Shown: piece after piece, positions 14,386-32,707 of the stretch
Position numbering within the stretch: the stretch's first letter is position 1
Layout: every line of letters begins with the position of its first letter
Assembly: GCA_964632885.1 (NCBI GenBank)
Contig: CAZWDB010000003.1
Span: forward strand, 7,445-71,444
Source of the DNA: an uncultured Acidimicrobiales bacterium
GTDB taxonomy: Bacteria > Actinomycetota > Acidimicrobiia > Acidimicrobiales > CAZWDB01
Length of the DNA stretch: 64,000 nucleotides
Reading direction: 5' to 3'
Program-made: the position numbers and the translations under genes
The notes under the pieces: model-generated
The model's database searches: none
Told to the model about the DNA's origin: nothing
Seen by the model: the letters and a program-made list of their open reading frames with translations, nothing else

Positions 14386-14386
14386 G

Positions 14387-15277
14387 CTATGCCTCGTAGC
14401 CGACGACGGTGATCGAATACGACGGGGTGCCGCCCGACACGTCGGCGAAGACGGCGTCGGTGAACTGTTTCGGCTCCGCGAACGACAAACCCAGCTCGAA
14501 GTGGGGGGTGGTAGCGCCCGTCACACCGGACGACAGCTCCCACGCGCCTTTGAGGGTGCCACCGTCGCCGTCGCGGATCCGCAGCGCCGACGCCGCCACG
14601 TTCGACAGGTTCCGGAACGAGACCTCCATCGACGTCACATAGAGCGTCTTGCCGGCGGTGACGGTGTGCACGGTGTCGTCGGCCGTCGCGAGGTCGAGGG
14701 TCGCCGTGACGTGGGTGCGTCCGGAGCCTTGCGAGGGCCGGTCGGGGACGGTCGAGCCGACCTGGTTGGTGCCAGCCGCGAGCGCGTCGTTGCGGCGGAA
14801 CTGGTTGTCGCGCAGCGTCACCAGCAGCAGGCGGACGGCTTCGAGCTTCGCTTCGGTGGCGACCGTCGCCAGTGTCGTCTCGGTCGCGAAGTCTTCGTTG
14901 GCGATCGTCGTGGTGTCGGCTTCGATGCCGGTGAGTGTCGTCTCGACGCCGTCGAGCAGGTCGACGAGTTTCTGTAGCCGGCCGATGACGGTGGTGGCGG
15001 TGTCGTCATCCGCGGTGGTGCCCAGCGACTCTTCGAGCCCGTCGATCTCGGCTTTGAGGTCTTCGATGAGGCCGGGCAGCTCGACGTCGCGGACGGGGAG
15101 CCCGTAGTCGGCGGAGTCGGGGCGGGCGTTGCGGGTGTGGGCGAGGTCGTCGGGTTGGTCGCCGCCGACGACGACCCGTTCCCGTTTCTTGAGAGGCTGG
15201 CCGGCTTCTGAGATCTCTTCGACGTCGAGGGCGTCGCCGCCGGCGCCGGGGTTGAGGTTGAGGGTGCCGTCAGCCAT
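14387..15277 (-). CDS. Virion-associated protein (fibre/decoration-like)
   Basis: 296 aa; DFATETTL repeats, TVTAGKTLYVTS C-terminal domain. Confidence 0.7.
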   Translation of the reverse strand: MADGTLNLNPGAGGDALDVEEISEAGQPLKKRERVVVGGDQPDDLAHTRNARPDSADYGLPVRDVELPGLIEDLKAEIDGLEESLGTTADDDTATTVIGRLQKLVDLLDGVETTLTGIEADTTTIANEDFATETTLATVATEAKLEAVRLLLVTLRDNQFRRNDALAAGTNQVGSTVPDRPSQGSGRTHVTATLDLATADDTVHTVTAGKTLYVTSMEVSFRNLSNVAASALRIRDGDGGTLKGAWELSSGVTGATTPHFELGLSFAEPKQFTDAVFADVSGGTPSYSITVVGYEA

Positions 15278-15719
15278 GTCGGCTGTCTCCTTCGACGGCG
15301 AGGGCGATGCCGTCGTCGTCGACGGGCGGGCTGTCGGTCGCGGTGCGCCGTATCCACACGGCCCGGCAGTGGCGGGCCGGTATGTCGCCGAGGCGGAGCC
15401 CGTCGATCTTGGCGGCGGGTGTGAACCATCCGACGGTCACGTCGGGGCGGCTCGCCTTGGCCCGGCCGAGCGGCGTGGGCGCCTGGTCGTCGAGCGCGAT
15501 CGCGACGTCGCAGGTGCGGGACGTGCCGGTGAACCACACGCGGGCGTCGAGCAGGGTGAGGTCGTCGTGGAGGTTGGCGACGAAGACGACGTAGGTGTCG
15601 ACGGCGCGGGAGGCGTTGGCGTCGCCGTCGACGTCTGGCAACCGTTCGGCGCGCCGGCGAACCGGCTTGCCGGCGGCATCGGCTTCGAGGATGGCGAGGT
15701 CGTCCGCGCTTATCGGCAT
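15270..15719 (-). CDS. Hypothetical structural protein
   Basis: MPISADDLAILE...GDIPARHCRAVWIRRT. Confidence 0.65.
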   Translation of the reverse strand: MPISADDLAILEADAAGKPVRRRAERLPDVDGDANASRAVDTYVVFVANLHDDLTLLDARVWFTGTSRTCDVAIALDDQAPTPLGRAKASRPDVTVGWFTPAAKIDGLRLGDIPARHCRAVWIRRTATDSPPVDDDGIALAVEGDSRHG

Positions 15720-15720
15720 G

Positions 15721-17973: not shown

Positions 17974-18021
17974 GCCGTCGCCATGATACGTATTTCGTGT
18001 CGGCGGGCGGGGTGATAGGGG

Positions 18022-18258
18022 TCAGTCGTCGAGGCTTGCCGCCAGGTCGCGGACGGCCTGTTCGGCGTCCCGGCAGGCGTTGAGCGCCTCGCGTAACGCT
18101 GGCGCGAGGTCGTCGACCATGTCGGCGGTGACGGCGACGACGTAGGCACCGACCTCGCGGCCACGTTGGAGTGTGACCATGCACCGCTCGACTCCCCAGC
18201 CGGTGCGGTCCGCCATGTCGCGGGCCTGCTCGACCAGCTCGGGATAGAGGCGTGTCAC
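18022..18258 (-). CDS. Hypothetical phage protein
   Basis: GTG start overlapping upstream stop. Confidence 0.55.
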   Translation of the reverse strand: MTRLYPELVEQARDMADRTGWGVERCMVTLQRGREVGAYVVAVTADMVDDLAPALREALNACRDAEQAVRDLAASLDD

Positions 18259-18671
18259 GCTCCCGTCTCTTTCACGGCGTAGCGCCAGGCGTAGCCGTAG
18301 GCCGACGGCACCCACTCGTCGCCTATCAGCACGCCGGGGTTGTCCGGGTGCGGCACGATCTCCAACGCACCTTCGAGGCCGGCGTGGCGCGCGTTGCGTA
18401 GAACGAAGTCGCGCAGCTCGTCGGTCAGCTCGTCGGTCAGCTCGGCCATGAGCGTGATCTCGACGCTTCGCTCGCCGGGCGGCAGTGCTCGAAGCTCGCC
18501 GGGCTCGCGCTCGTACATGCCCTCGACCTCGATCTCGGTTTTCCCGAGCGTGAACGCGAGGCAGTCGCAGTCCTCACACTGGCGAGGGTCGCGGCCCGTG
18601 CTGTGGCGGCGTTCGGTGCAGCCGCACTCGCAGAGGGAGCCGCCGTCGGCGAAGTCGGGAGCGTCGCTCAT
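18255..18671 (-). CDS. Hypothetical protein with Cys-rich N-terminus
   Basis: CECGC...H...CEDCDC. Confidence 0.6.
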   Translation of the reverse strand: MSDAPDFADGGSLCECGCTERRHSTGRDPRQCEDCDCLAFTLGKTEIEVEGMYEREPGELRALPPGERSVEITLMAELTDELTDELRDFVLRNARHAGLEGALEIVPHPDNPGVLIGDEWVPSAYGYAWRYAVKETGA

Positions 18672-18850
18672 GACAGCCGGCGTACCGTCAGGCTGTGACC
18701 GGATCCCGACGGCGTGGGATCACAGGGCTGCTCGATGGCGACGGCGACGTTGGCGAGGTGTTGGTCGCAAGAATGCAGCACCTCGGGCTTGCCCGGCACG
18801 GCCTCGTGGCGTTCGCGCAGCTCAGCGTCGCATGTGTAGTGGGCGCTCAT
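18668..18850 (-). CDS. Small hypothetical protein
   Basis: MSAHYTCDAEL...; stop overlaps next start. Confidence 0.5.
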   Translation of the reverse strand: MSAHYTCDAELRERHEAVPGKPEVLHSCDQHLANVAVAIEQPCDPTPSGSGHSLTVRRLS

Positions 18851-18878
18851 GGCTTGATTGTCGCAGACGGGAGCGACA

Positions 18879-19085
18879 TCACTGCTCGCGTTTGGTGGTG
18901 GCGGCTTTCCAGCCGACGAGCACGGCGGTGTGGGCGTAGCCGACAACCCAGCCGGCGCCACGCCACACGATGCCGGCGACCCATGCGACGGCGATCAGAA
19001 CGGCGAGCACGAGCGAGACGAGCGCTCGGAGCGGGTTGACGGGGCGGGCGTGCTCGCGGACCTGTTCGACGAGCCGGCGGTTCAT
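18879..19085 (-). CDS. Small membrane protein
   Basis: LVSLVLAVLIAVAWVAGIVW hydrophobic stretch. Confidence 0.55.
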   Translation of the reverse strand: MNRRLVEQVREHARPVNPLRALVSLVLAVLIAVAWVAGIVWRGAGWVVGYAHTAVLVGWKAATTKREQ

Positions 19086-19375
19086 GACTCGCTCACGACC
19101 GCGGCGTCGCGGCGCCGGCCGCGGCGCCAGGCGAGGAACGGTGGCGGTGCCGACACCTTCACCGTTCGGGTTTCCGTGGCGACTTGGCCGTGCTCGATGT
19201 AACGCCCGCCCGTGGCATCGAGCTTGAGGCACGTCGCCTCGACGGTGCCGTCCTCGTCGCGTACCCGCAGCTCGCGACAGTCGTCGATGTTCTGCTCGTC
19301 GAGCCACTCTCTGAGACGCTCCCGCAGCTCGCGCGGCGTCGCGTGGTAGTCCTCCATCGTGTAGGTGGTCATCAT
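19082..19375 (-). CDS. Hypothetical phage protein
   Basis: MMTTYTMEDYHATPREL; RBS GAGGA. Confidence 0.6.
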   Translation of the reverse strand: MMTTYTMEDYHATPRELRERLREWLDEQNIDDCRELRVRDEDGTVEATCLKLDATGGRYIEHGQVATETRTVKVSAPPPFLAWRRGRRRDAAVVSES

Positions 19376-19605
19376 GTGGCGATCCTCTGTAGTGGCTTCT
19401 CGAACCAGAGCGGCGTGAGGACGTGCAGCGTCCACGTCTGCTCGCCGGTCGCGACGCGTTCGCGGACGTCGAGGGCCTGACCATGCGCGACGTTCACCAT
19501 GTGAGCGTGGACGTCGAGCCGGCCGACGACGTGCTCGCCGTGCTCGACGTCGTCGGCAAGGCGGCGCAGCCGTCGGACGATGGCCTCAGTGTTCGGGTCG
19601 ATCAT
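19372..19605 (-). CDS. Hypothetical phage protein
   Basis: MIDPNTEAIVRRL; coupled to terL stop. Confidence 0.55.
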   Translation of the reverse strand: MIDPNTEAIVRRLRRLADDVEHGEHVVGRLDVHAHMVNVAHGQALDVRERVATGEQTWTLHVLTPLWFEKPLQRIAT

Positions 19606-21122
19606 CGGGCGATAGCTCCTTCGTAGGTTCGCTGACCGTCGACGGCCAGCTCGGTTAGCAGCCAGACGAGGGCGTCCATCCGGTTCGGCGACCAGTCGAC
19701 GTCGTCGGTCCACTGGCACTGCTCGTCCTCGAGCTCGGGCAGCATCCCGACGTGGTGGACGCGGTGCTGCTCGTACAGGGCGACGACCGGCTCCGACCTC
19801 CGCCGTTTCCCTCGGGTCGCGTTGACCTTCCTGTACGGGATGCCGTTGCCGCCGGGCACGGTCCGCAATGTCATTTCGACGAGGTCGCCGCCGTTGTTGA
19901 CCTCGCCGATGACACGGTCCGCCGCGTACTCGCGGGCTTTGCCGACGACACGCCGCGCCCACTTCGACGGGCCGGCGGCGGTTGTCGCGTCCTCCAAGAT
20001 GTAGGCGTGGGGGGTGTCGGGCGACATGCCGGGCGGCGGCGTCCAACCGGGCGGCGGCGGGCCGATACCGCCGATCATGATCCCGCACTCGTCGTGGCCG
20101 CCGCGGCGGACGCCGACGTCGTCGAGCGCGTGCGGTGGCGCCTCGTCCGACTCGGTCACGTTCGGGTCGACCGCGACAACTATGCGGGTGAGGGCGAGGA
20201 CGCCGTCTTCGTCGACGGGTTCGTCGAACACCCGGTCGACTTCGATCATGACGCGCCGCCACAGGGCGCCTTCGATGTCGTCGAGGATCTCGGCGTATAG
20301 CTCCTGGCGGCCGAGGTTGGTGCCGGTGTAACGGTCGATGATGCGTTGGAACATCGGCGACAGGTTCGGCAAGTTCTCGAACGTGGTGCCCGTGGTTGTT
20401 TCGCAGCCGGACTCGGAGCGGATCTGGCGGAGGATCGTCAACGGTTTCGGGGTGGTCGTGACGACGGCCTGCGGGTTCGCGCCGAGCCGCAGGCACATTT
20501 GCAGCATGTCCCACACGTCGCGTATGTGGACCCAGGCGGCCAGCTCGTCGCACCATGCGCCGTGGAACTGTGGGCCGCGTAGCCGTTCGGGGGTTTCGGA
20601 CGCGAAGAGTCGGATGCGGCAGCCGTTGGTGGTTATGACTTCGCCGATGGAGCGATTCCAGATGTAGTGGGTTTTCTCTTTCCAGCCGCGGCGGTCGAAG
20701 ACGGCTAGCAAACCGGATTCGCCTTCGACGCATGTGTCGCGGGCGTCTCCGAAAGTGGGGGCGATGATCGCCCACCGGGTGCGGGGCCGGGTCATGACCT
20801 GTTCGGCGAGCCATTCGGCGCCGGTGCGGGTTTTGCCCCAGCCGCGGCCGGCGAGGATCAGCCAGACGAGCCATTCGCCGGTCGGCGGGTGTTGTTTGGC
20901 GCGGGCGTGCAGCCATTCCCAGCCGTCGTGGGCTTCGCCGTCGCATTCGTTGTTGTCGCATACCCACCAGCGGGCGAGGTCGGCTTCGATTTCCTCCGCG
21001 AGCGCGTCGACGATCTGTTCGACGTTTTCGAGTAGTTCGGCGGCTTCGTGGTCGTCGAGGCCGGGGAGCATCGCTTCGATCTCGGCGAGCAGTGTTTCGG
21101 CGTCGGCGAGGGTGACGGTCAC
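19602..21122 (-). CDS. terL: Terminase large subunit
   Basis: AGRGWGKTRTGAEW Walker A, LRGPQFHGAWCDE, VTTTP, VAVDP, SPNRMDALVW; probable start GTG 21122. Confidence 0.95.
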   Translation of the reverse strand: MTVTLADAETLLAEIEAMLPGLDDHEAAELLENVEQIVDALAEEIEADLARWWVCDNNECDGEAHDGWEWLHARAKQHPPTGEWLVWLILAGRGWGKTRTGAEWLAEQVMTRPRTRWAIIAPTFGDARDTCVEGESGLLAVFDRRGWKEKTHYIWNRSIGEVITTNGCRIRLFASETPERLRGPQFHGAWCDELAAWVHIRDVWDMLQMCLRLGANPQAVVTTTPKPLTILRQIRSESGCETTTGTTFENLPNLSPMFQRIIDRYTGTNLGRQELYAEILDDIEGALWRRVMIEVDRVFDEPVDEDGVLALTRIVVAVDPNVTESDEAPPHALDDVGVRRGGHDECGIMIGGIGPPPPGWTPPPGMSPDTPHAYILEDATTAAGPSKWARRVVGKAREYAADRVIGEVNNGGDLVEMTLRTVPGGNGIPYRKVNATRGKRRRSEPVVALYEQHRVHHVGMLPELEDEQCQWTDDVDWSPNRMDALVWLLTELAVDGQRTYEGAIAR

Positions 21123-21664
21123 GACGGCTCGTGGACGGTGACGAATGGGCGGCGGACGCCGGCGCTGTGCGCCTCGGCAGCTTCGAGCGCGCGTCGGATC
21201 CGCACCCACGGCGGCAGCTCGTCGCGGGTCATGGCGTGCAGAGCTCCGAGCGCGATCTCCTGGCCGCACCCGCACGCGTCGTACAGGGTGTCGGGCACGG
21301 CGACCTGGTAGTCGCCGTGAACCTGGTAGATGGCGCCGCGGTAGCCGACGAGGAACGTGCCGCCCTCTTCCCGCTCGCTTTCTCTCTTTGCGTAGCCGCC
21401 GGCTTTGAGGCAGGCACGGACGGAGTCGACGAAACAGGTAGCCATGAACGCGCGGTCGTCGAGGCCGGGGCCGTGGGAAGGGACGGTGAGGGTGTATCGC
21501 AGGAGTTGGCCCATTCGGAACGAGGTGGTGAATCCCATGACGAACGGTCCGCGGCGGAACACTTTCTCGTCGGCTCGGACGGTGAGCTGGTAGCCGGCGA
21601 CGCCGGCGGAGTCGGCGCCGATCCATACTCGGCGTCCGTTGGTGACGGCGGCGACGGCGGTCAC
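21119..21664 (-). CDS. HslV/proteasome-beta-like Ntn hydrolase
   Basis: (M)TAVAAV...IGADS...KVF...ACGCGQEIALGAL...ALEAA; N-terminal Thr after Met removal. Confidence 0.75.
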   Translation of the reverse strand: MTAVAAVTNGRRVWIGADSAGVAGYQLTVRADEKVFRRGPFVMGFTTSFRMGQLLRYTLTVPSHGPGLDDRAFMATCFVDSVRACLKAGGYAKRESEREEGGTFLVGYRGAIYQVHGDYQVAVPDTLYDACGCGQEIALGALHAMTRDELPPWVRIRRALEAAEAHSAGVRRPFVTVHEPS

Positions 21665-21873
21665 GACACCCGCTCTTGGCGGCCGGCCCGGCGGAGCGCG
21701 TCGTCGACGAGGAACCGCACCTGTTCGGCGGCGTGCACCGCTGCCATGGTCGGCGGCACGTCGTCGACGTCCTGGTCGACGACGTGGAACAGGGCGACGA
21801 CGTCGTCGAGGTCGAGCACTACCTGATCCGGCCCGACACAGCACCGACCGCCCTGCGGTTCGCCCCAGCCCAT
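21661..21873 (-). CDS. Small hypothetical protein
   Basis: Fills gap between terS and Ntn hydrolase. Confidence 0.45.
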   Translation of the reverse strand: MGWGEPQGGRCCVGPDQVVLDLDDVVALFHVVDQDVDDVPPTMAAVHAAEQVRFLVDDALRRAGRQERVS

Positions 21874-22422
21874 TTACTTGACCGCCCGCAAGTTCGCGGT
21901 GCCCTTCCGGGCCTGCAGCTCCGCCATCCGATCCCGCACCTTCGCCAACGCCTGATCCGCCTGGCCGGTGATCTCCTGACGATCCGTCGACCCACCCGAC
22001 AAAAGCTGCGCCTTGTCGACGAAGATCGCGAACGCGAGCGCCGCCTCCTTCGCCGCCTTCGGATCCGGCGGCACGTCATACACGACCGGTTCGCCGTCGT
22101 CGTCGATCTCCTGCACCTTGTGGCCGGCGAGCATCAGCAGCGCTGTTTCACGGGCGGCGGTGGCGGCGTCGCCCGCTAGGTCGGCTTCGCGGCTGCGGCG
22201 TACCGCCCATTTGCGTTGGGCGGCTTCTGTGGCGGCTGCCGTTTTAGGGGGGGCGACCGTTGCGTCGCGTTTCCAGCCGGCGGCGCGCGCCCATTTGGAG
22301 ATGGTGCCTTTGTGGCGGCCGACGGCTTTGCCGATGGTGGCGAGGTCGTCGCCGCGTTCGAACATGGCGCGGGCCCGTTCTTTGAGCTGGTCGATAACAC
22401 CCGGAGTGCGAGAGTCGGTCAC
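21874..22422 (-). CDS. Probable terminase small subunit (HTH)
   Basis: LATIGKAVGRHKGTISKWARAAGW; AIFVDKAQLLSG; position upstream of terL. Confidence 0.7.
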   Translation of the reverse strand: MTDSRTPGVIDQLKERARAMFERGDDLATIGKAVGRHKGTISKWARAAGWKRDATVAPPKTAAATEAAQRKWAVRRSREADLAGDAATAARETALLMLAGHKVQEIDDDGEPVVYDVPPDPKAAKEAALAFAIFVDKAQLLSGGSTDRQEITGQADQALAKVRDRMAELQARKGTANLRAVK

Positions 22423-22664
22423 GCGCTCAGCCCTTCCTTGGCAGCGACAGCGTCGATCGCTTCTCGGGTGACTTCGAAGTACGCCTCCGTCGGGAAGGCC
22501 GTGCCGTCGAGGCGTTCCTGACCAGGCTGGTACTCGGCCCACACGGCGACCCGAAGGCCGTAGGGGACCATGTACCAGTGACGACGGCACATGAACATCT
22601 TCGGTGGGACGTGCACGTCGCACGCCTTCGCGTGGCACGTGTGGGCGTCGTCGCGCTCAGTCAT
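22419..22664 (-). CDS. Hypothetical Cys/His-rich protein
   Basis: HTCHAKAC...MFMCRRHW. Confidence 0.65.
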   Translation of the reverse strand: MTERDDAHTCHAKACDVHVPPKMFMCRRHWYMVPYGLRVAVWAEYQPGQERLDGTAFPTEAYFEVTREAIDAVAAKEGLSA

Positions 22665-23100
22665 CGTCACTCCCACTGAGCACGCCATCCAGGGGTGCGC
22701 TCTCGCCGAATCGCTCTCTCGGCGACTTCGGGGCCGACTCGCCGAGTCGATCGGGGAACCCTTGTCGCTCGCTGACCTTGTTGAACTTGGCGACGATCGC
22801 TGCGGGAAGGGTGATGCCGGCGCGGGTCGCGAGCAGGTCGAGGTAGAGGTAGACGTCGGCCAGCTCGTCGGCGAGGTCGGCGAGCAGAGCGTCGCGGTCG
22901 TGGCCGTTGACGTCGCGGTAGCCCGTTTCGATGCGGCGCAGCTTCTTGACAACGTTGGCTGTCTCCCCGGCTTCGCCGACCATGGCGTTCGACCAGTCGG
23001 CGAGCGACCATGCTTCGTCGTGCGGGAAGCCGGGGTGCCATTTGCGGCAGCGCCGGAGGTTGGCCGAGGTCACCTCGGAGAAGGTGAGCGCGTCACACAT
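22657..23100 (-). CDS. MazG-like NTP pyrophosphohydrolase
   Basis: GEAGETANVVKK...ADELADVYLY...KFN. Confidence 0.85.
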   Translation of the reverse strand: MCDALTFSEVTSANLRRCRKWHPGFPHDEAWSLADWSNAMVGEAGETANVVKKLRRIETGYRDVNGHDRDALLADLADELADVYLYLDLLATRAGITLPAAIVAKFNKVSERQGFPDRLGESAPKSPRERFGESAPLDGVLSGSDDD

Positions 23101-23260
23101 CGTTGCCTCCTTGTGCGCGTCGAACGTGCTCGCGGTGCCCGCTGCCGAAGATGGCGTCGAGGTCGTCGCACAGCTCACAGGCGGTTTCCGTGCGTCCGTG
23201 GTCACACTCGATGTCGTGGACGTGCCGCATCTGGTCGAAGGTGTCGCCGTGCTCGCCCAT
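23093..23260 (-). CDS. Small hypothetical protein
   Basis: MGEHGDTFDQ...CELC. Confidence 0.45.
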   Translation of the reverse strand: MGEHGDTFDQMRHVHDIECDHGRTETACELCDDLDAIFGSGHREHVRRAQGGNDV

Positions 23261-23847
23261 TAGGCGCAGCTCCACGGCGTCCAGCCGTCTCTGAGGAACA
23301 GGGCGCGGGCGGCGGCGATGTTGGCGTCGACGTCGAACATGGCATCCCACGACAAGCCGATCTGGTCGAGTAGTTCGCCGGGCTCGGCGTGTACGGGGTG
23401 GATTTGGAAGAGGCCGCGTTCGCCGGCGGCGCCGACGTCGGTCGGGTCGAACCGGGATTCGCAGCGGGCGACGGCGAGCGCTTGGGCGCAGCGGTCGCCG
23501 AACGCCTCGCAGATCCGGTTCTGTATGTCGGGGAGGGGTGCGGTGTGGACGTAGACGCCGACGGCGTGAACTTCGACGGGCGGCTCGGTCGTGGTCGTCG
23601 TGGTGGTGCTGGTGGCTTGCCATGCGGCGTATCGGTCGGCGATCGCGCCGGCCGGTAGCTCGCGGACGCCGGGCCGGGCGCTGATGTCGTCGACCGTTTC
23701 GAGGTGGACGGCGCCGGGCGTGTCGAGCATTCGGGTGAAGACGACGCCGGCGGTGATCGACACGGCGACGGATAGGAGGGCGACGAGCGCGACGAACGCT
23801 ACGGTGTCGACGGGTCGCCAGCCGGCGATGCGGGTGGGCCGGTTCAT
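23260..23847 (-). CDS. Membrane-anchored lytic transglycosylase (SLT-like)
   Basis: N-terminal TM, poly-Thr linker, VARCESRF...GLFQI...NIAAA...GWTPW. Confidence 0.85.
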   Translation of the reverse strand: MNRPTRIAGWRPVDTVAFVALVALLSVAVSITAGVVFTRMLDTPGAVHLETVDDISARPGVRELPAGAIADRYAAWQATSTTTTTTTEPPVEVHAVGVYVHTAPLPDIQNRICEAFGDRCAQALAVARCESRFDPTDVGAAGERGLFQIHPVHAEPGELLDQIGLSWDAMFDVDANIAAARALFLRDGWTPWSCA

Positions 23848-24386
23848 TCGGACGGTCCTTTCGTGGGGTTCTGGCGGGCCGCGTTCCACGAGCCCCAGGT
23901 GACGCGTTGTCGGTGGTCGCCGCCGCAGACTGCGCAGCGGTCGGGGTCGTTCTGGCCGGGTGTGAAGTCGTGGTCGACAACGGGCACCGAAACGAGGATG
24001 CGGAACTCGCCGCGTGCGGGACCGGCCGTCTCGGCCTCGCCGACGTGCGAGCAGTGTGGATAGCGGCGTTCGCCGCATTGCTCGCACCATTTGCCGAAGA
24101 CTTCGACGAGATTGCACGGCCTTCCGGGCGTGACGAAGTGGCGGCGGCACGAACAGACCACGGGGTCGTCGAGCCAGACGATGCGGGTGTGGCCGCCGTG
24201 GCCGTGGACGGCTTCGACGGACGCGACGCCGCGTTCGTGGAAGACGACGGAGGTCGGGGTGGCGCTGTTCCATCGGAGGACGGCGATGTCGGGCTCGACG
24301 AAGTGGACGCCTTCGGCGACGACGCCGGTACCGGACACGCCGGTGTCGTCGACGTCGCGGTGCAGTTCGAATCGGCGGGTCGTCAT
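23844..24386 (-). CDS. Conserved actinophage-type hypothetical protein with Cys-rich tail
   Basis: RRFELHRDVDDTGVSGTGVVAEG...VHGHGGHTRIVW. Confidence 0.7.
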   Translation of the reverse strand: MTTRRFELHRDVDDTGVSGTGVVAEGVHFVEPDIAVLRWNSATPTSVVFHERGVASVEAVHGHGGHTRIVWLDDPVVCSCRRHFVTPGRPCNLVEVFGKWCEQCGERRYPHCSHVGEAETAGPARGEFRILVSVPVVDHDFTPGQNDPDRCAVCGGDHRQRVTWGSWNAARQNPTKGPSE

Positions 24387-25683
24387 CGTTTCGTCTCGAT
24401 CGTCCAGGGGGCGGGCGGTGTGATGGCGCGGAACAGTCGGCGGATGCAGACGAGGCAGACGCGGGGCCGCGCGGCGAGCTGGTGGCGCCGGTTGCACCAT
24501 CGGCAGACGCCGTGGGCTATGGCGCCGGTCGGTGTCTTCGCTCGAACGATGCGCCGTATCTCGCGTTCGGCTCGCCGTTTCGCGGCTCGGTGGTTGTTGC
24601 TCATGCTGCGTGTCCTTTCTCGAAGAGGTCGAGGGCGGGCGCCGGGTCGACGGGGGCAGCGGCAGGCGGCCGGCGGTGCGGGTGGGGGCCGCAGGTGCGC
24701 CAGTAGCCGTGTTCGACGAACAGGAGGCCGCAGACTCCGCATAGGGCGCCGTCGTGGAAGGTGACGGCCGGGGCGTCGGCGTCGTAGCGGCGGCCGGCGG
24801 TGTAGTCGGGGAGGCGCGGGTCGTCGGAGGTCATCGGCGGAACCATTCGCCTCGGTCGGCGTGTTCGACGCCGTGGGTCGGGCAGCCCTCTTCGCCGGCG
24901 GGGTGGTCGCAGATCGGGCAGCGCCGGTCGTGGTTGGCGCGGCCGCGACGTATGTCGTCGACCGTCGGACCGTTCGCCGCTTCGAGCATTTCGAGGTAGT
25001 CGCCGGGGTTGTTGAGCGTCTTCTTGCGGGGCGCCGCCATCAGCGGACCTCGGCGAGCTGGGCGTCGGCAAGGTCGGCGTCGAAATCGGCCATGATCGAC
25101 AGGTGCTCGACGGATTGGGCGCACATGCCGGGCATGGCGCCGACGGGGACGGCCCACACCCACCGGCACCAGGCGCACACGGCCCAGCCGTCGTCGGGGT
25201 GGGGGCGGCGGACCGATTCGCGGTCGCAGTGTGGGCAGTCGCGGCACGGGCAGCGGTAGCCGTAGGTGCGCGGCGGTTTCGACGTGTCGGCGTAGTCGGT
25301 CACGTCGGGTCGACCTTCTCGTAGGCGACGGCGGCGGCGATCGCCGACAGCATCCCGACCGCGGTGGGTAGCGGCAGGTGGGCCGTCGGGTCGGAGACGA
25401 CCATCGCGTGATGCAGGTAGTCGATCCCGAACGCGAACGCTCTCGCCTGTTCGGCGCAGCCGAGGTCGACACCCAGCCGGGCGGCGGCGTCTCGCACCAT
25501 GACGACGTTCTGGTCGGTGGCGGCGACAACGACTTCGGGTGTGATGCCGACGCGTTGGAACTCGTCGGATCGGGCGTTCTCGGCGAGACGGTCCGCCATC
25601 ATTCGGAGCGGCAGCCAGACGGTCGGGGTGCAGGCGAGGCAGAGTGCGCCGGCTGCGTGGTCGTGCGGGGCGGGTCCGTGCAT
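24383..25683 (-). CDS. Five small hypothetical genes (24383-24604, 24601-24834, 24831-25040, 25040-25303, 25300-25683)
   Basis: Chained overlapping start/stop codons; all have CxxC motifs. Confidence 0.55.
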
Positions 25684-25686
25684 TGG

Positions 25687-26319
25687 TCAGGCTCCTTGGG
25701 CGTGGGCTCGTGGGCAGGGGCGGGCGACGTTCGTGTCGTCGTCGAGGACGAGGCCGGTGTCGCCGCAGTCGGGGCACGCTTCGCCTCGGGCGCGTCGGGC
25801 GTTGCGTTCGGCGCGGACGTGGTCGGCCGCCGCGCGGGACTCGTAGGGGTCGTTCGATGTCGACGCGCGACGCGCGGGTCTAGGGGTCGTAGGGTCAGGT
25901 CGCATGGGTGCGACCGTTTCTGCGTCGATTTGCGACCGTTGTGCGACCGATAACTCGGCGCCTTTGGTTGCAGCTTGCGACCATTGCTCGGCGAGGTCAT
26001 CGGACAGCCTCGGGGTCGGCCATTTGAGCTGCGCGGCGATGCCGAGCGGGTTGCGTCCCATCGCGACGACGTACTGGTTGTGGCGGCCGCGGGCGTGAAC
26101 CTTCGGGCGGTTGACGACCAGCTCGCCGGCCGCTTCGAGCGACCCGAGGCAACGCATGACCGTCGCCCGGTGAACGTGGCTCTTCGCGGCGAGACGGTTG
26201 ACGCCCGGATAGCAGTATCCCGAGTCGTCGGCTTCGTCGGCGATCGACAGGAGCACGAGCCGGTCCGATCCGTCGGCGTCCGAGTCGTGAAACACCCATG
26301 TCAGAACGCGCAGACTCAC
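25687..26319 (-). CDS. Replication initiator (winged HTH, lambda O-like)
   Basis: RLVLLSIADEADDSGYCYPGVNRLA...RATVMRCLGSLEAAG; C-terminal CPDC; RBS AGGAG. Confidence 0.85.
   Translation of the reverse strand: MSLRVLTWVFHDSDADGSDRLVLLSIADEADDSGYCYPGVNRLAAKSHVHRATVMRCLGSLEAAGELVVNRPKVHARGRHNQYVVAMGRNPLGIAAQLKWPTPRLSDDLAEQWSQAATKGAELSVAQRSQIDAETVAPMRPDPTTPRPARRASTSNDPYESRAAADHVRAERNARRARGEACPDCGDTGLVLDDDTNVARPCPRAHAQGA
25898..25982. repeat. Iteron cluster (TGCGACC/GGTCGCA), putative phage origin
   Basis: TGCGACC at 25909, 25931, 25942, 25976; inverted copies at 25898 and (one mismatch) 25966; inside initiator gene. Confidence 0.7.
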
Positions 26320-26475
26320 CGCGTTACCGTCCTCTCCTGGTGCGTGTCGTCGTGTCGTTCGCCGGCTGGGAGCTCGTAGTCGAGGCGCCCGCCGCGGCCC
26401 GAAACGATGAGCGGAACCATGAGCCGCTATTCGTATCACACCGGGCGCGGCGCGGCGACGACGGGGAGGCCGAGA

Positions 26476-26652
26476 TCACGCCGATCGGCTCCGGTGCCCG
26501 ATATGCCACCAGCCGCACGAGCAGCGGTAGGCGACGAGGCGGCCGCCGCCCATAGCTTGGGTTCGACGGGCAGCCCTCTTCGCGACCGTCGAGTTGGCGT
26601 AGGTTCGTTTCAGGTCGCAGCCGCGGGCGGACACGGAGCGTCGGGCCACCAT
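26476..26652 (-). CDS. Small Cys/His protein
   Basis: AYRCSCGWWHIGH; start uncertain. Confidence 0.55.
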   Translation of the reverse strand: MVARRSVSARGCDLKRTYANSTVAKRAARRTQAMGGGRLVAYRCSCGWWHIGHRSRSA

Positions 26653-26680
26653 CAACGCCCCCGCTCGGTTGGGAGCCACG

Positions 26681-27157
26681 TCACTGTCTCGTCTCGTCGT
26701 CCGCGCCGTCGTCGAGGACGCGGCGGACGAACACTTCGTTGCCGCCGTGGCTCCATTCCCAGCCTTCGAGCCCGAGCCGCCGGCACCGCGACGCGAGCGA
26801 GCCGGCGCCTTGGCCGGTCTGGCATTCGATGACCGAATGCCAGGCGCTCGCGGTCCACTGGCCGCTCGTCTCGATCTCGGCGAGCAGCCCGGCGACGCGG
26901 TCGATCAGCTTCGGCGCGCCACCGGGCTCGGGCTTCGGCGGGTCACGCCGGGCGATACGGTAGATCGGGCCTGGCTTTTTCGGCTTGGCCGGCTTGCGTG
27001 GCGCGGGTGTCGACGATGCGTTGCTGTGGCTGGGTCGGTTGCGATGCCGGCGGCGGTCGGGACATCCGCAGGTGCCCGACATGCACAGGCTGTGGGAGCC
27101 TTCGCGGCATCGGCCGCACCAGCCGGCCTTGGCGTCGGTGATCTCTTCGGTGGTCAT
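26681..27157 (-). CDS. Hypothetical phage protein
   Basis: MTTEEITD...CGRC...CGC; RBS GAAAGG. Confidence 0.6.
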   Translation of the reverse strand: MTTEEITDAKAGWCGRCREGSHSLCMSGTCGCPDRRRHRNRPSHSNASSTPAPRKPAKPKKPGPIYRIARRDPPKPEPGGAPKLIDRVAGLLAEIETSGQWTASAWHSVIECQTGQGAGSLASRCRRLGLEGWEWSHGGNEVFVRRVLDDGADDETRQ

Positions 27158-27501
27158 GATCTTCCTTTCCGTGCGGTTCGGAGGACGTCGGCGGCGAAGT
27201 CGAGGTCGTCGGGGTACCAGACGTAGGAGGGCACGCCGGCGGCCGCCAGCTCGTCGAGGACGTCGGACTGTTCGGGTGTCGGCTCGTCGGGCGGCACCTT
27301 CACCTCGACGGCGAGGACGCCGCCACAGTCCGGGTGCCAGAGCAGCAGGTCGGGCCAGCCCTTGACGTTGGTGGCGGTGACCCACGTCTTGCCTTTGCCG
27401 ATGGAGCGGCGGACGTGGAGGTGCCGCCATCCGTAGGCCTGTGCGAGGTCGACGAGCTGCGCCTGCCACTCGGTGTGGGTGGGGCGGGGCGGGGCCGTCA
27501 C
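27154..27501 (-). CDS. VRR-NUC domain nuclease
   Basis: GWPDLLL...VEVK...PTPEQ..L..L. Confidence 0.85.
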   Translation of the reverse strand: MTAPPRPTHTEWQAQLVDLAQAYGWRHLHVRRSIGKGKTWVTATNVKGWPDLLLWHPDCGGVLAVEVKVPPDEPTPEQSDVLDELAAAGVPSYVWYPDDLDFAADVLRTARKGRS

Positions 27502-28903
27502 GCGCCACCTCCGAGCCGTTGGAGCGCGACGAGCGCTAGCGCGCGCTCGACACGTTCGAGTCGTTTCGCGAGCGGTACCGGCTTTGTCGGCCACCGGCCG
27601 CGCAGCAGCGGCGGTGCGGCCGGTTCGGGCTTGTACCACGGGACGCGGCCCTCGATCACGACGCAGGGCGCGTCGTTCTCGATGAGAAGGCCGGTGGTGA
27701 GGTTCCCCTTCCACTTGCCGCGCTTGCGTATCTCGGTGACGTGGTAAGCGCCCTCGACGTGAACCTGCGTCATCGGGTCGAGCCGGGAGAGGACGTCGAC
27801 CAGCTCGGCCGCCGTCACGACGCGACCCGTTCGTCGTCGAGGTCGAACCAGTCGGGCCACACATGCGACGGGTGGTAGCCGGCCGCCGTCGCGGCCCGGT
27901 CGGCTTCCCACTCGTCGATCCAGCGGCGCGACCCGTGGCGGCGGCGGTGAATGGTGCGCCGGTCGACGCCGACACGAGCGGCGATCGCCGACGGCGAGTC
28001 CTCGTCGAGCAGGTCGACGAGGACTCCGAAGTCGAAGAGGCGGCCCGTCACCGGTTGGCCTTCCGTTGCCGCCAGCGGGGCCGGCTGTAGAGCGCTTCGG
28101 CGTCGCGGCACGGGTCGCAGCCGCATCCGTCGTTGTAGGTGGAACGGCGGCCGTGGGTGCGGCCGTGCAGGATCGGGCGGAGGTTGCGTTGCCGGCGGAT
28201 CCTGTCTCGGCGGACGGGCGCGGTCACGACCTGGCCGCCTTCGACTGTTCGACGCGGCGCCACACGATGGAGCGGTGACCGAGGAACCAGTCGCCGCGTT
28301 CGCCGGTGTCGACGATCAGGCGGTGCTTCGCGAGCCGTTCGACGGCGGCGAGGATCGTCGACGTCGTCTTGCGTTTCCGGCGGTCGGCGTCGGGGCCGTC
28401 GTGGCGACCGATCAGCTCGCCGACGATCGACTTGTCGTCCGCGGTGTCGCGCCGGTCGAGCAGCGCGAGCACTTGCAGCTCCATGCCTTCGGGCTCGTAG
28501 GTCTTCGGGCGTGCCGTTTTGAGGGCTTTGCGGAACTTGACGTTGTGTGTCTCGTCCCAATCGGGGAACATCGAATCCGTCACGGCCTGCCTCCTTCGAG
28601 GGTGCGGTCGACGCGGCCGCGCTCGACCGTCAGCCACTCGCGGAGCACGGCGATCTCGCCGGCCGACGGCAGGTGGTGGCCGAGGTACTCGGCGAGCGCG
28701 GCCGCGACCGCTTCGAGCGTGTCGACAGGAAGGGATATGCCGGCGTCCGTCGGGGGCGTGGTCGCTACGGCGTCGACGACCATCCACGAGCCGTCTTCGA
28801 GTAGCGCCTCGACGATGCCGGCGGTCCCGCCGACGGGCCGCCAGACGTGCAGCCGGACAGTGTCGGTGTGGACGGCGCGTTCTATGTGGGCGCGGTACGT
28901 CAT
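27498..28903 (-). CDS. Five small early genes (27498-27818, 27815-28051 HTH-like, 28048-28227 Zn-finger, 28224-28583, 28580-28903)
   Basis: GTGA/ATGA coupled; IAARVGVDRRTIHR HTH; HGRRSTYNDGCGCDPC. Confidence 0.6.
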
Positions 28904-29496
28904 GATGCGCCGCCACATGCCGAGCAGAGGTCGGCGGCGACCCACGAGCACGGCGGCTGGCACGCGTTGTCGTCGGTGCATCCGCACACGCGGCAAGCTC
29001 GCACCGAGTGAAACGGTACGAACTCGGCATCGCTCTTGACGTAGAGCGGATGCCTAGGAGCGCCGATCTTCGTGGTGCCGAGGCAGAACCAGCCGCCCGT
29101 GAACCACTCTTGGAGCGGCGACTTGGCGAGGCGGGCGAAGATGTTCGCTCCCCACGCTGCGACGACCATCCCGATGCCGTGGTCGCTGAGCACGGCATCC
29201 CAATGGCGATGGTTGTCCGGCCCGACTACATCGATCCCCGCTGCGGCCGAGTCGTACAGGTCAGACGGGTTCGGCGAGCGATAGGCGAACAGGTTGACGA
29301 CCTCGATGCCGTTGTATCCCTCGCGGCGAGCGAAGCTCATGCAGCGTCGGATGGTCGGGTCATCGACAGAGGCGTCGGCCGTGCTCGGGTTGAGCATCAC
29401 CCACGCCATGCGCTCGCCGATGCCCCAAGTGCGGCTGAGGCGGTATCGGTAGCGTTCGCAGTCGGACAGCTCGGCGCCTGCTGTCGGCTCGGTCAT
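28900..29496 (-). CDS. DUF1643 domain protein with C-terminal Zn ribbon
   Basis: YRYRLSRTW...MLNPSTAD..DDPTIRRC...VNLFAYR...PRHPLY. Confidence 0.9.
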   Translation of the reverse strand: MTEPTAGAELSDCERYRYRLSRTWGIGERMAWVMLNPSTADASVDDPTIRRCMSFARREGYNGIEVVNLFAYRSPNPSDLYDSAAAGIDVVGPDNHRHWDAVLSDHGIGMVVAAWGANIFARLAKSPLQEWFTGGWFCLGTTKIGAPRHPLYVKSDAEFVPFHSVRACRVCGCTDDNACQPPCSWVAADLCSACGGAS

Positions 29497-30563
29497 GACG
29501 CCTTCTCCTTCGCCCGCTCGACGCGAGCCTTCGCGGCCTTCGCTTCGGCCCGGCCCTTCGCCTTGTCGGTGACCTCGGCGATGTAGGGCTTGCCGTCGTC
29601 GGTGGTGTCGAACGACAACGACTTGTCTTCGAGGCCGGCGACGATCGCGTCGACGTGTATGTCGGTCGCGTAGTGGTAGTCGACGATCGACTGCGCTTCG
29701 AGGTCGTGCCAGCCCTTGCCTTTGACGTAGGCGAGCCAGCCGGCTTCGTCGGCGTCGTCGTCCGGCGGTCCCGCCGGCGGCGACGCGCCCTCAGTCGCGT
29801 CGCCGCCGGCCGGCTTCGAGCGCTCGGCTTCGAGCGCGGTTATGCGGGACGAAACAGCTTCGAGCTGGTCGCGCGTCCACGTCTTCGACGGGTCGATCTC
29901 GTGGTCGCGCATCCACTTGGCGTGAGCCACCTTCTCGTCGTCGGTCGGGTCGAGCGCCTTGAACCGTTCGCGGTTGGCCTTGCGGGCAGCGTCGTACTCG
30001 GCCCGCGACTCCCAGCCGTTCTCGAGAAGCCAGGCGTCGCGGTCGGGCGCCGTGGCGGCGGGCTCGTCGGGTTCGTCGGCGTGGCCGAGGTCGCCGCCCT
30101 TGTGCCACAGGTCGAGGGCGACACCGAACCGCATGGCGGCGTTACGGAGGGCGTCGCCGATCAGTTGTTTGTCGACGTCGTCCTTGCCGGCTTCGCAGGT
30201 GCCGACGCCGTAGCGGGTGACGCCGCCGACGGTTAGCGCGATCCACAGCGACGCGGTGCCGTCCCTCACGCACCGGGCGGCGGTGAGTCCCATGCGGTCG
30301 AGGAAGTCGCGGTCAGCGGGCTCCCATGTCCACTCGGGGTCGGCGTCGAGCAGCCGGTCGGTGACGGCGGCGTGGCCGGCGTAGTCGAGGTGAATCGACG
30401 GGAACTCGTGATAGCCGCCGCACTCGCGGCAGCTACCCTTTTCGCGCTCGTTCTTCGGCGTGGTCTTCCGGCCGGTGTAGCGGGGCAGTTTGCCGATCGC
30501 CTCGGCCGGCAGCGGCTCACGCAGCTTCGCGAGAGCGTCGAAGTCAGGGATGGTGTTCGTCAT
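29493..30563 (-). CDS. Rad52/Rad22-family (Sak-like) ssDNA annealing protein
   Basis: LDYAGHAAVTDRLLDADPEWTW...KQLIGDALRNAAMRFGVALDLW. Confidence 0.8.
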   Translation of the reverse strand: MTNTIPDFDALAKLREPLPAEAIGKLPRYTGRKTTPKNEREKGSCRECGGYHEFPSIHLDYAGHAAVTDRLLDADPEWTWEPADRDFLDRMGLTAARCVRDGTASLWIALTVGGVTRYGVGTCEAGKDDVDKQLIGDALRNAAMRFGVALDLWHKGGDLGHADEPDEPAATAPDRDAWLLENGWESRAEYDAARKANRERFKALDPTDDEKVAHAKWMRDHEIDPSKTWTRDQLEAVSSRITALEAERSKPAGGDATEGASPPAGPPDDDADEAGWLAYVKGKGWHDLEAQSIVDYHYATDIHVDAIVAGLEDKSLSFDTTDDGKPYIAEVTDKAKGRAEAKAAKARVERAKEKAS

Positions 30564-30913
30564 CACGACCCCCTCGCATGGACGAGCAGCGTGTGCGCGT
30601 GGTTGGCGACCAGCACTTCCCAGGCGGTGACGCGGCCGGGGCGGCACGCGAGCCAGCGGAAGCAGCGGCGGGCGGTGTCGCGGAGAATGGCGACGTTGAC
30701 GGGGTTGACTTCGCCGATCTCGTCGTCGTCGACCCATTCGAGCTTGGGGGCGCCGGCGGCGAAGCCGAGGCAGTAGTAGGTGCGGTGCTCGCGGCCGCCG
30801 TCGTCGACGGCGTCGCGGTAGTCGACGACGGTGCCGCCGCGCGACGGCTCGTCGCCGACGCGTTCGGCCCACACACCGGAGCCGACGCGGATCTGATCTG
30901 TCCGCGCCGTCAT
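30563..30913 (-). CDS. Hypothetical early protein
   Basis: 116 aa coupled ORF. Confidence 0.6.
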   Translation of the reverse strand: MTARTDQIRVGSGVWAERVGDEPSRGGTVVDYRDAVDDGGREHRTYYCLGFAAGAPKLEWVDDDEIGEVNPVNVAILRDTARRCFRWLACRPGRVTAWEVLVANHAHTLLVHARGS

Positions 30914-31233
30914 CGGATCTCACCTCGGGGGGCGACGCCGAGCAGCTCGTCGTCCCACGCCGCGAAGTCGTGGCGGCAGATGCATTCGACCTTGCCGTCC
31001 TCGTCGACGCAGATCGCGCGGTGCTCGGCGCGGGCGTCGTCGCGGGCTTCGGCCCGGTCGCGGGCGCAGCCGTCGCACATGAACACGGCGCCTTCCCTGG
31101 TCGTTACCGGCCGTTCGGGGTTCTGGCAGATGTCGCAGACGGCGTCGGCGAACTCGTCAGCGAGGCGGTGCAGGTTGTCGCGGGACCGGGCGACCGTCGC
31201 GCGGTAATCCCGTCCGTAGCGTCGGGGGCTCAT
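30910..31233 (-). CDS. Hypothetical early protein (Cys motifs)
   Basis: RBS AGGAG; CDIC...CDGC. Confidence 0.65.
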   Translation of the reverse strand: MSPRRYGRDYRATVARSRDNLHRLADEFADAVCDICQNPERPVTTREGAVFMCDGCARDRAEARDDARAEHRAICVDEDGKVECICRHDFAAWDDELLGVAPRGEIR

Positions 31234-31251
31234 GGGTTATGCTCCTGTTCT

Positions 31252-31485
31252 CGAAACCCGTGCGGGGTTTCGGTTCCGCCACCCCCCGGTTAGCCGGGGG
31301 GTGGTTCGCGTGCGGGGTACGGCGGCAGCCACGCGGGCCGTGTTTCATGACCCGATCACCAGGCGTCCGGGGATCTCCCCCGGCACCATGCGGCCGCGTG
31401 GCTTCACCGTTCGGAGCCGGTCGGCTCCGCGTCGAGCACCGGGAACCGCGGGGGATGGGGGGCCCTTCGGTCCGATGCTCGACGC
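31252..31485 (-). ncRNA. Candidate structured RNA (five consecutive stem-loops) between cro and the first early gene
   Basis: Stems at 31252-72, 31279-304, 31327-403, 31412-29, 31429-85; a G-U pair favours the minus strand. Confidence 0.55.
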
Positions 31486-31500
31486 GCAACCGATCAGCGG

Positions 31501-31713
31501 TCACGTCTTCACCCGCCAAGACGCCGCCCACACCCGCAGGGTGCGGGGGCCGACGTCGATGCCGTAGCGTGCGTGGAGACGCGACGCGATTCGTTCCCAC
31601 GACAGCCCGTCGCGGCGCATCGAACCGAGAAGGTCGGGCAGCTTGCCGTCGGTCAGCGCGAGCGCCATGCGTTGCGCCGGTGATTCACGGGCTGGCGTCG
31701 TAGGCTTCGTCAC
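31501..31713 (-). CDS. Cro-like HTH regulator
   Basis: LSWERIASRL...VGPRTLRVW; divergent from repressor. Confidence 0.75.
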   Translation of the reverse strand: MTKPTTPARESPAQRMALALTDGKLPDLLGSMRRDGLSWERIASRLHARYGIDVGPRTLRVWAASWRVKT

Positions 31714-31827
31714 GCCAACGATCCTGACACGTTCACCGTTGCAGTGTCAACGGTTTACGGAAACTTTGACGGACTAAATGTGGTGGCCCGTTGCTAGGCG
31801 ACTCGCGCATGTCGTACAGTCACGACC
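31714..31827. promoter_or_regulatory. Divergent lysis/lysogeny promoters and candidate operators
   Basis: Minus: TTGACA-N18-CAGGAT-N7-GTG; plus: TTGCTA-N18-TACAGT-N7-ATG; inverted repeats TGACAC..GTGTCA and CCGTTG..CAACGG over the cro promoter. Confidence 0.7.
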
Positions 31828-32130
31828 ATGGCACGAAAGAAGACGACACCCGTAGGCGGGGTGACGGATGCCGGCGCCGCGGCTCGTAATCGAGCCCTCG
31901 CCGTCATCAAGGCACTCATGGGCTATCGAGACGTCAGCGGCCGCCAGCTCGCGGCCGAGCTGGGGATGACCCAGCCTCAGCTCTCGGAGCGGCTCTCAGG
32001 CAAGCGGCGGATGAGCGTCGAAGAGATGGCGACGATCGCCGACTACTTCGGCGTCCCGATCGGCGCCCTCTTCCACGAGGTGCCGCTGGATTTCAGGAGG
32101 GGCGCTAGCGGGGGATCGAAGTATGCTTGA
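31828..32130 (+). CDS. Phage repressor (XRE HTH, no peptidase domain)
   Basis: SGRQLAAELGMTQPQLSERLSGKRRMSVEEMATIADYFGVP. Confidence 0.9.
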   Translation: MARKKTTPVGGVTDAGAAARNRALAVIKALMGYRDVSGRQLAAELGMTQPQLSERLSGKRRMSVEEMATIADYFGVPIGALFHEVPLDFRRGASGGSKYA

Positions 32131-32707
32131 ACTCGTTGAGCTCGGGCCATCCGCTCACGAGGTCGACCGCCCGCTCGATGGTCTTGGTGGCGAGGGCTCC
32201 GTCACCCTTGGGACGGTTCATGAACCGGATGAACACGGCCTGGTCGTTCTGGATGAAGGTTGGGACCCCCCACACCGCGCTGTCACCCGCGGCCTCCTCA
32301 TGTTCTTTGCGGAACTGCTGGAGGGGCCACCCGTCGTCGATCTCCGCGAACACGGCTTCGGCATCGGCGCCCGCGGACGCCAGGGCCTTCTTAACGACGT
32401 CAGGGTCCCGGATGTCACCGCCCTCGTCGAAGCGGGCACGGAAGAGAGCGATGTGGGCGTCGAGGAACTTGGCCGGAAAGCGGTCCCGCACGACGATGCC
32501 GGCCTGCATGGCGAGGAGGCCGGGCGCCTTGGACTCGTCGTCCCATACGTCGGGTTCGCCCTCCTTCACGTGTACCTGGCTCAGCGAGAACGGCGCGAAG
32601 CGGACGTCCCAGTCTGCGCCCGCACGCAGGCCTTCGACCACGTGTTCATGGGCGTTGCGGGCGAACGGGCAGCGGTAGTCCCAGGTCACAGCGAAGGTGG
32701 TGGTCAT
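32105..32707 (-). CDS. DsbA-family thioredoxin-fold protein (host; candidate attB gene)
   Basis: WDYRCPFA, WGVPTF. Confidence 0.85.
   Translation of the reverse strand: MTTTFAVTWDYRCPFARNAHEHVVEGLRAGADWDVRFAPFSLSQVHVKEGEPDVWDDESKAPGLLAMQAGIVVRDRFPAKFLDAHIALFRARFDEGGDIRDPDVVKKALASAGADAEAVFAEIDDGWPLQQFRKEHEEAAGDSAVWGVPTFIQNDQAVFIRFMNRPKGDGALATKTIERAVDLVSGWPELNEFKHTSIPR

Follow-up and report, generated by a model that had tools for sequence, protein, structure and literature searches.

At position 32130 of a stretch of soil Acidimicrobiales DNA, a phage repressor gene that reads outward ends inside a host gene that reads the other way. Does integration at this site determine which form of its repressor the phage makes? 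To our knowledge, integration-dependent immunity is the simplest known lysis–lysogeny switch, and it has been proposed as an ancestral form. An initial annotation of the locus had suggested that a switch resembling that of phage BPs operates here at a protein-coding attB. The logic of the sequence supports this idea: the ~39.5-kb prophage described below probably carries a BPs-type integration-dependent immunity switch, with attB in the 3' end of a DsbA-like gene, within its last seven codons.

The stretch analyzed, hereafter the window, comprises 64,000 nt (G000:C3:7445-71444) of a metagenome-assembled genome (MAG) of 284 contigs with a contamination of 8%. The host is an uncultured soil member of the Acidimicrobiales, class Acidimicrobiia. 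The GC content of the window is about 0.69, no tRNA genes were found in it, and contig C3 has a further 7,444 nt left of the window start. Four features meet at the right end of the phage DNA:

31828..32130, + strand: immunity repressor, prophage (truncated) form, 100 aa, XRE-type HTH (ORF, Pfam, PHROGs)
31714..31827, unstranded: divergent control region, 114 nt, separating the repressor from the first early gene that reads leftward
31501..31713, − strand: 70-aa gene in the cro position, first of the leftward early operon (ORF, coding-type GC3)
32105..32707, − strand: DsbA-like thioredoxin-fold gene, a hybrid, 200 aa (Pfam DSBA PF01323)

The repressor matches Pfam family HTH_3 (PF01381; 33.3 bits, cut-off 23), with HTH_26 and HTH_31 also above their cut-offs, and the PHROGs family 'transcriptional repressor' (phrog_4583, E 6.8e-12). 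It is the last phage gene on the right side, it points outward, and in the prophage it ends ...ASGGSKYA-TGA. ORF, Pfam and PHROGs evidence agree with the initial annotation that this is an outermost, outward-pointing 100-aa XRE repressor lacking a peptidase domain. A self-cleaving repressor of the LexA/CI type was considered and rejected: the 100-aa protein matches HTH families alone and has no peptidase S24 domain. We preferred the upstream ATG over the 70-aa database call because homologues align from query residues 11-27 onward. A word-index search for close repressor homologues returned just the genome's own 70-aa call, and matches to the repressor in the phage database were limited to the HTH.

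Within the divergent spacer lies an operator-like palindrome (31734-31755, inverted repeat I5), the exact pattern of which occurs as a single copy in the window and is absent from L013, the locus to its left. A scan of the control region for the sigma-70 consensus found no promoter. The 70-aa gene on the far side of this region belongs to no Pfam or PHROGs family and may, by position only, be a candidate cro equivalent.

On the host side, the DsbA-like protein (43.9 bits to PF01323, cut-off 25.6) ends ...NEFKHTSIPR-TAG, and 5 of 10 order-level relatives have exactly this C-terminal decapeptide. The repressor and DsbA-like ORFs overlap convergently by 26 nt (32105-32130), and the repressor's 3' end is, as had been noted, antisense to the final 26 nt of the host gene. 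Taken alone, a 26-nt overlap would be weak evidence; it goes beyond chance because a matching junction exists at the other prophage end. The empty locus of relatives, to which the initial annotation had pointed, has the uninterrupted gene order PAP2 / DsbA-like / WS-DGAT. A WS/DGAT gene directly follows the DsbA-like gene in 29 of 80 GTDB loci and in L018, which is the closest metagenome locus (83% identical), and none of 160 homologous loci carries phage DNA, an integrase or a repressor homologue downstream of the DsbA-like gene. The named relatives at these loci are Acidimicrobiales MAGs. In the spacer between the DsbA-like and PAP2 genes, at 32757-32800, a 10-nt unit (GGCCCAGATC-like) is also repeated head to tail about four times, on the promoter side of the DsbA-like gene.

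Leftward of the repressor, everything up to the window start is phage, with nearly all genes reading leftward. The element and the genes identified by PHROGs matches are as follows:

G000:C3:56-39573 (window 1..32129, − strand, with 7,389 nt more to the left of the window): whole prophage, ~39.5 kb
2480-5764: tape measure
10544-12076 and 12092-13456: protease/capsid
15721-17973: portal
19602-21626: large terminase
25687-26439: replication initiator
29493-30923, − strand: single-strand annealing protein
within the window: tail terminator, major tail proteins and connector
on L013, left of the window: endolysin

From this gene content, the element appears to be a complete-looking, temperate prophage of the siphovirus type, with the repressor outermost. 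The longest ORF for the annealing protein is 476 aa; its first ~120 residues are Arg/Pro-rich and match nothing, the PHROGs match covers residues 126-291, and the true start probably lies further downstream than the longest-ORF start. Adjoining this gene, in the early region of the prophage, is one for a DUF1643 protein (28900-29496, − strand; Pfam E 1.5e-32, phrog_3230 E 1.5e-50).

If a phage gene has been cut at the right end, the missing part should be sought at the left, where contig C3 provides the following features:

C3:232-1242, + strand: tyrosine integrase, 336 aa (Pfam PF00589, PHROGs), outside the window
C3:31-55, − strand: orphan host 3' end of the DsbA-like gene (repeat match to attR)
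C3:50-55: attL core TGCTTG, the exact block common to both junctions
C3:54-158, + strand: detached 34-codon repressor tail, open in the repressor frame

No integrase stands beside the repressor; it lies at the opposite prophage end, in keeping with the initial annotation. The protein matches PF00589 with 62.2 bits (cut-off 27.1) and the integrase family phrog_1 with E 5.8e-39. It is armless, consisting of the SAM-like core-binding and catalytic domains alone (Pfam) from about residue 10 of 336, and its C-terminus, -GELPA, lacks an -AA tag. Just upstream of it lies the orphan DsbA-like end. The direct repeat anticipated beside the integrase is thus present in imperfect form: C3:31-60 matches window 32105-32134 at 21 of 30 nt, reads ...QESKHTSIPR-stop on the − strand, and the stops of the two copies align. 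C3:1-55 and C14:1-55 are exact reverse complements of each other and form an assembly overlap (k=55), and C14 runs on into a WS/DGAT gene (Pfam). Because of this orphan 3' end and the synteny of relatives, we place the prophage within the DsbA-like gene, where it separates the body of the gene from its original last codons.

Among 40 ORFs, many of them small and without a family, we found no integration/excision family, such as an excisionase, other than the integrase. The integrase has matches in 427 phage-database records, including 293 from Mycobacterium phages and 120 from Gordonia phages, and the third-best of these, prophi91-3 (MabO), is annotated with attP inside the immunity repressor. 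Elsewhere in the order, integrase homologues at E<=1e-30 (35-45% identity) were present in 4 of 400 other genomes, and the regions upstream of them contain no clear repressor tail. In one of these genomes, G201, two contigs (C162, locus L101, and C112, locus L103) start 185 nt upstream of an integrase homologue (37-39% identity). Their leaders are near-identical, with an open frame ending -VAVVES upstream of the homologue, and the assembly seems to break at the attachment junction, as it does in G000.

Where exactly host and phage DNA meet decides whether the repressor stop came from the phage or from its host. Two features of attR are relevant here:

32124..32129, unstranded: attR common core TGCTTG, the inferred crossover region (contig breaks, host conservation)
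32130..32130, + strand: first host base after the core, which completes the repressor TGA stop

TGCTTG is the sole exact block of at least 6 nt common to both junctions; one mismatch follows it, and then a shared ACTC (32131-34). The mismatched base, 32130, is on the opposite strand the middle base of a conserved Phe codon in the DsbA-like gene. Its equivalent at attL, C3:56, is a G, which gives TGG in the repressor frame.

Three independent lines of evidence (MAG overlap, Logan breaks and homologue conservation) place the crossover in TGCTTG. Firstly, the last base of the attL hexamer is also the last base of the 55-nt overlap of C14 and C3 in the MAG (k=55). Secondly, we compared Logan contigs (k=31), which were made with a different assembler from three soil runs that are possibly the MAG's own source. 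All three runs break alike: 32153 is the last base of the contig on the phage side, and 32124 is the first base of that on the host side. The two contigs share a 30-nt node (the k-1 overlap), 32124-32153, whose first base is also that of the hexamer. Thirdly, we assessed conservation of the DsbA-like gene in two sets of homologues, one of 90 loci (10 order-level genomes and 80 metagenome contigs) and one of 80 GTDB loci. The Phe-Lys-His motif TTCAAGCA is found in 68/90 and 64/80 of these, the core hexamer in 73/90 and 71/80, and TCAAG in 80/90 and 76/80; read on the other strand, the Phe-Lys codons of the family give TGA. The attR-type codon pair CATACT, 3' of the hexamer, occurs in 0/90 and 0/80 host homologues and the attL-type Ser codon, 5' of the hexamer, in 0/80; overall, 0 of 170 homologues have the phage-type codons. 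At attR, the gene sequence 5' of the hexamer is host-type and that 3' of it is not, and at attL the reverse holds.

Because the crossover is placed within TGCTTG, the A of the repressor TGA (32130) would be host DNA, and the earlier proposal that the host supplies the repressor stop would be upheld. Had the exchange instead occurred rightward of 32130, as in the ACTC block, the stop would be phage-encoded and the repressor unchanged, and the prophage would be of the ordinary type that rebuilds its target gene's 3' end. The ACTC shared by both junctions after the single mismatch favors such a site, as does the fact that attB is deduced from graph topology and homologues. However, both assembly graphs break at the edges of TGCTTG rather than at 32131 or beyond, and the host would have to carry the Ser codon that none of the 80 homologues has, 64 of them having TTCAAGCA. 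An overlap of just 4 bp would, besides, be uncommonly short for a tyrosine integrase; PMC6109161 gives 7-8 bp as the requirement. We regard a crossover to the right of 32130 as very improbable.

In the Logan assemblies, the host-side contigs have depths of 9.29, 12.3 and 10.6, versus 6.52, 8.08 and 6.19-8.3 on the phage side, where contig depth is no measure of cell shares. Because the host-side contigs are deeper, a second sequence must join at 32124, and graph topology and homologues suggest the empty site as its simplest candidate. No attP or free-phage form was seen in the Logan contigs of the three runs, though contigs may drop rare variants. The phage-side contigs are unbroken through the core in all three runs. 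This bears on a further concern, namely that the MAG, being contaminated, contains an assembly artefact or a chimera at the junction. The contamination of 8% and a contig break just 55 nt from the left junction give this concern some basis, but the Logan contigs of the three runs pass from phage through the core into 24 nt of host-specific sequence with no mismatch, the left junction bears the orphan gene end expected of a true insertion, and the synteny of the flanks agrees with that of relatives. An artefact seems extremely improbable on these grounds.

A run from another soil study, X4, yielded small, diverged pieces only. One of them, a contig of 1404 nt, differs from 32107-32212 (the final 106 nt of the DsbA-like gene) at 3 places, leaves the window sequence at the DsbA-like stop and continues for ~1.3 kb unlike the window. 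It may represent a relative's empty site or a different prophage at the same site.

With the crossover placed in TGCTTG, the nucleotides between the core and the DsbA-like stop become a phage-borne arm:

32105..32123, unstranded: phage-borne, double-coding arm (comparison with the orphan host copy and homologues)

On the − strand, the arm encodes HTSIPR and the stop, i.e. the last six residues of the DsbA-like protein; on the + strand, it encodes the last residues of the repressor. The DsbA-like gene of the lysogen is hence a hybrid, with codons 1-194 from the host and the final six codons and the stop from the phage, and its protein sequence is unchanged. Compared with the orphan host copy, the phage arm differs at 7 of 19 nt, and all of these differences are silent (five third-codon positions and the stop codon). 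Lysogeny leaves the DsbA-like protein unchanged because the arm re-encodes the displaced residues silently. The idea that the phage arm is nearer to the family consensus than the host arm was ruled out, mean identities being 12.6 versus 13.4 of 19.

What, then, does the repressor look like before integration? In the reconstructed attP, the repressor frame runs 34 codons past SKYA and ends -SPAPAAA, giving a product of 134 aa versus 100 aa in the prophage. The extension past SKYA to an ssrA-like end, which the initial annotation had raised as a possibility, is thus found. In the circular form, 73 nt separate the stop of the tail from the start of the integrase gene, and repressor and integrase are both on the + strand. 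The 34-codon tail lacks a coding signature (GC by codon position 0.79/0.74/0.79, which does not tell the reading frames apart), and in such GC-rich DNA an open frame of 34 codons is expected by chance (~0.6, an estimate). The 34-aa tail matches no family and is shared by no repressor homologue. Because the tail is devoid of coding bias, the argument for a degradation tag rests on the end of the tail and on the repressor family.

As to the end, the host tmRNA tag is ADEAPALAMAA, and the MAG contains clpX and three clpP genes. The clpX gene is split over G000:C13:3-794 and G000:C32:2-520, with clpP beside the C32 part; this is an assembly break, with no evidence of a broken gene. As to the family, an exhaustive HMMER search listed 149 matches besides the protein itself, 121 of which are 60-200 aa long. 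Among these matches listed, 50/121 repressor homologues (41%) have an -AA end, where the sequences are cluster representatives yet interrelated, so that a binomial comparison overstates their independence. By comparison, an -AA end is found in 26/2588 (1.0%) long GC3-rich ORFs of G000. Because 50 of the 121 homologues carry it, we consider the -AA tag a trait of the repressor family. The nearest homologue among the matches listed is 51% identical, in the HTH only.

Several of the homologues hold peptide stretches that resemble translated tRNA genes. Two homologues, P0018 and P0032, of 100 aa and 141 aa, are alike up to ...RLDSNQQPS... and then diverge, the long one ending -CAA; as a lead, the pair resembles the prophage form and the viral form of a single integration-dependent repressor that uses a tRNA site.

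One could argue that the repressor frame at our locus is truncated without regulatory meaning. Both forms would then be equally stable and active, immunity would not depend on integration, and attP would merely lie beside the repressor. The absence of codon-position bias in the tail, the ease with which a 34-codon frame arises by chance at such GC, the occurrence of -AA ends in ~1% of host ORFs and the lack of an -AA tag on the integrase are all compatible with this view. It is opposed by the -AA end of 50/121 homologues, a family trait, by the integrase, which belongs to the group used by proven systems, and by a three-gene layout, the lack of an excisionase match and a 34-residue truncation, all of which fit published systems. 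A truncation of no consequence is, in our judgment, unlikely.

Alternatively, the prophage may be decaying or locked in, such that the switch worked formerly and is now inoperative, for example with just 6 bp of identity left. The failure to see an attP form in contigs of the three runs is consistent with this, and so is the absence of close phage relatives from any collection searched. Scans of IMG/VR with the integrase and with the portal protein each retrieved 0 related phages; a 20-nt stretch of the attR arm and a 25-nt stretch on the integrase side of attL had no match there; and the repressor retrieved just one weak locus, L017 (38% identity over 53 residues). In the phage database, the portal is <30% identical to every record. 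The phage itself would accordingly appear to be new, without a close relative in any collection searched. Against decay, the prophage gene set is complete and open, and in 3/3 runs the phage-side contigs have the lower depth, a sign that these samples also hold a prophage-free form. Moreover, working non-tRNA sites are reported with cores of 3-25 bp (PMC8092301). We see little chance that the switch has been lost.

The probable switch, of the integration-dependent kind, would work as follows. In the free phage, a 134-codon repressor gene would be followed after 73 nt by the integrase gene, the attachment site falling in the final quarter of the repressor gene. The integrase would recombine the 6-bp TGCTTG with the same hexamer in the host gene end ...EFKHTSIPR, splitting the repressor gene and carrying the integrase gene and the 34-codon tail to the far prophage end. 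The first host base past the core would make the TGA, yielding the 100-aa repressor, and the phage arm would re-encode the six displaced host residues exactly, keeping the host protein intact. We infer that the 134-aa form, with its -AAA end like the -AMAA of the tmRNA tag, is degraded by ClpXP and confers no immunity, and that a stable 100-aa form keeps the divergent early promoter repressed via the palindrome at 31734-31755. Excision would then rebuild the unstable form and lead to lytic growth.

A broader and doubtful extension is that the phage exploits the near-invariant host motif ...NEFKHT... as a portable stop-codon donor, that one attP serves hosts across the Acidimicrobiales, and that repressors with -AA ends are a large unrecognised class. 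If true, a single attP could at once rebuild the host protein without change and bring the repressor into its stable form, the 19-nt arm would be under selection on both strands at once, and integration-dependent or tag-controlled repressors would be a large, mostly unrecognised class in uncultured Actinomycetota (41% -AA ends).

With or without this extension, the proposed switch would now be placed in an uncultured soil member of the class Acidimicrobiia. It would be a clean case, in which one host base forms the repressor stop while the phage arm silently restores the host protein. The metagenome relatives of the repressor are strongly enriched in ssrA-like ends. The integrase and its attP/attB pair at a conserved site could also provide an integration tool for a group that has no genetics.

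How does this arrangement compare with known systems? BPs integrates at a tRNA gene. In BPs (cluster G; genes 32 int, 33 rep and 34 cro), as here, rep is followed by int on one strand, a divergent gene occupies the cro position, attP lies in the 3' part of the repressor gene, and there is no recognised excisionase. The BPs repressor has 103 aa in the prophage and 136 aa in the viral form, compared with 100 and 134 aa here. BPs gp32 and our integrase are 35% identical over 215 residues (E 5e-22), whereas the two repressors have no detectable kinship beyond the HTH (E 0.046). The viral tail ends -KAS in BPs and -AAA here, and the host of BPs is Mycobacterium rather than a member of the class Acidimicrobiia. 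As PMC4557955 and PMC3694055 describe it, BPs has attP within rep and no xis, and its prophage product is 33 residues shorter, stable and active.

The initial annotation had assumed that such systems use tRNA attB sites. This premise is outdated: PMC8092301 (Dedrick et al. 2021) describes integration-dependent immunity in M. abscessus prophages with six attB sites, four of them non-tRNA, with cores of 3-25 bp and one of them in the 3' end of a protein gene. That one is attB-8 of MabH, in the 3' end of MAB_2979, seven codons before the stop. The MabH prophages (prophiGD05-2, prophiGD36-2) resemble ours in this position of attB and in having repressor and integrase at opposite prophage ends, and the prophiGD05-2 integrase is 32% identical to ours over 261 residues (E 1e-23). 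They differ in that, according to PMC8092301, eight different residues take the place of the host's last seven, whereas the six displaced residues are restored exactly here, and in that their repressors and integrases are reported without ssrA-like tags, whereas the repressor tail here ends -AAA. More generally, that paper describes some M. abscessus repressors and integrases as lacking -AA tags, with untagged integrases in several clusters, and repressor truncations of 20-35 residues.

For MabC, MabK, MabN and MabO, PMC8092301 reports that the first bacterial base past the phage sequence forms the repressor stop, as proposed here, with similarly short non-tRNA cores of 3-25 bp and a truncation of 20-35 residues. 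The attB of these clusters is there assigned to a tRNA gene, to intergenic DNA or to a protein gene's start, in contrast to a protein-gene 3' end here. Reconstruction of the target gene has a counterpart in Bifidobacterium: the prophages at the dnaJ2 3' end have, according to PMC6109161, a tyrosine integrase, an imperfect extended core of 35 bp with an exact crossover of 7 bp (6 bp here), and a reconstructed protein-gene 3' end. Their integrases are lambda-type and ours is armless; a split repressor, as found here, is not reported for them, and PMC6109161 predicts integration-dependent immunity for other, tRNA-Met-integrated bifidoprophages only.

In the literature searched, integration-dependent immunity is described only in phages of the class Actinomycetes (Mycobacterium, Gordonia and Streptomyces, with Bifidobacterium predicted), and no paper joins integration-dependent immunity, Acidimicrobi- and prophage. 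Judging by titles, work on integration-dependent systems since 2019 concerns Mycobacterium and Streptomyces phages. Every structural element of the locus has a published counterpart, and the switch is of a known kind. What is new is the host group, the Acidimicrobiia, the exact and silent restoration of the host protein by a double-coding arm, and the phage itself.
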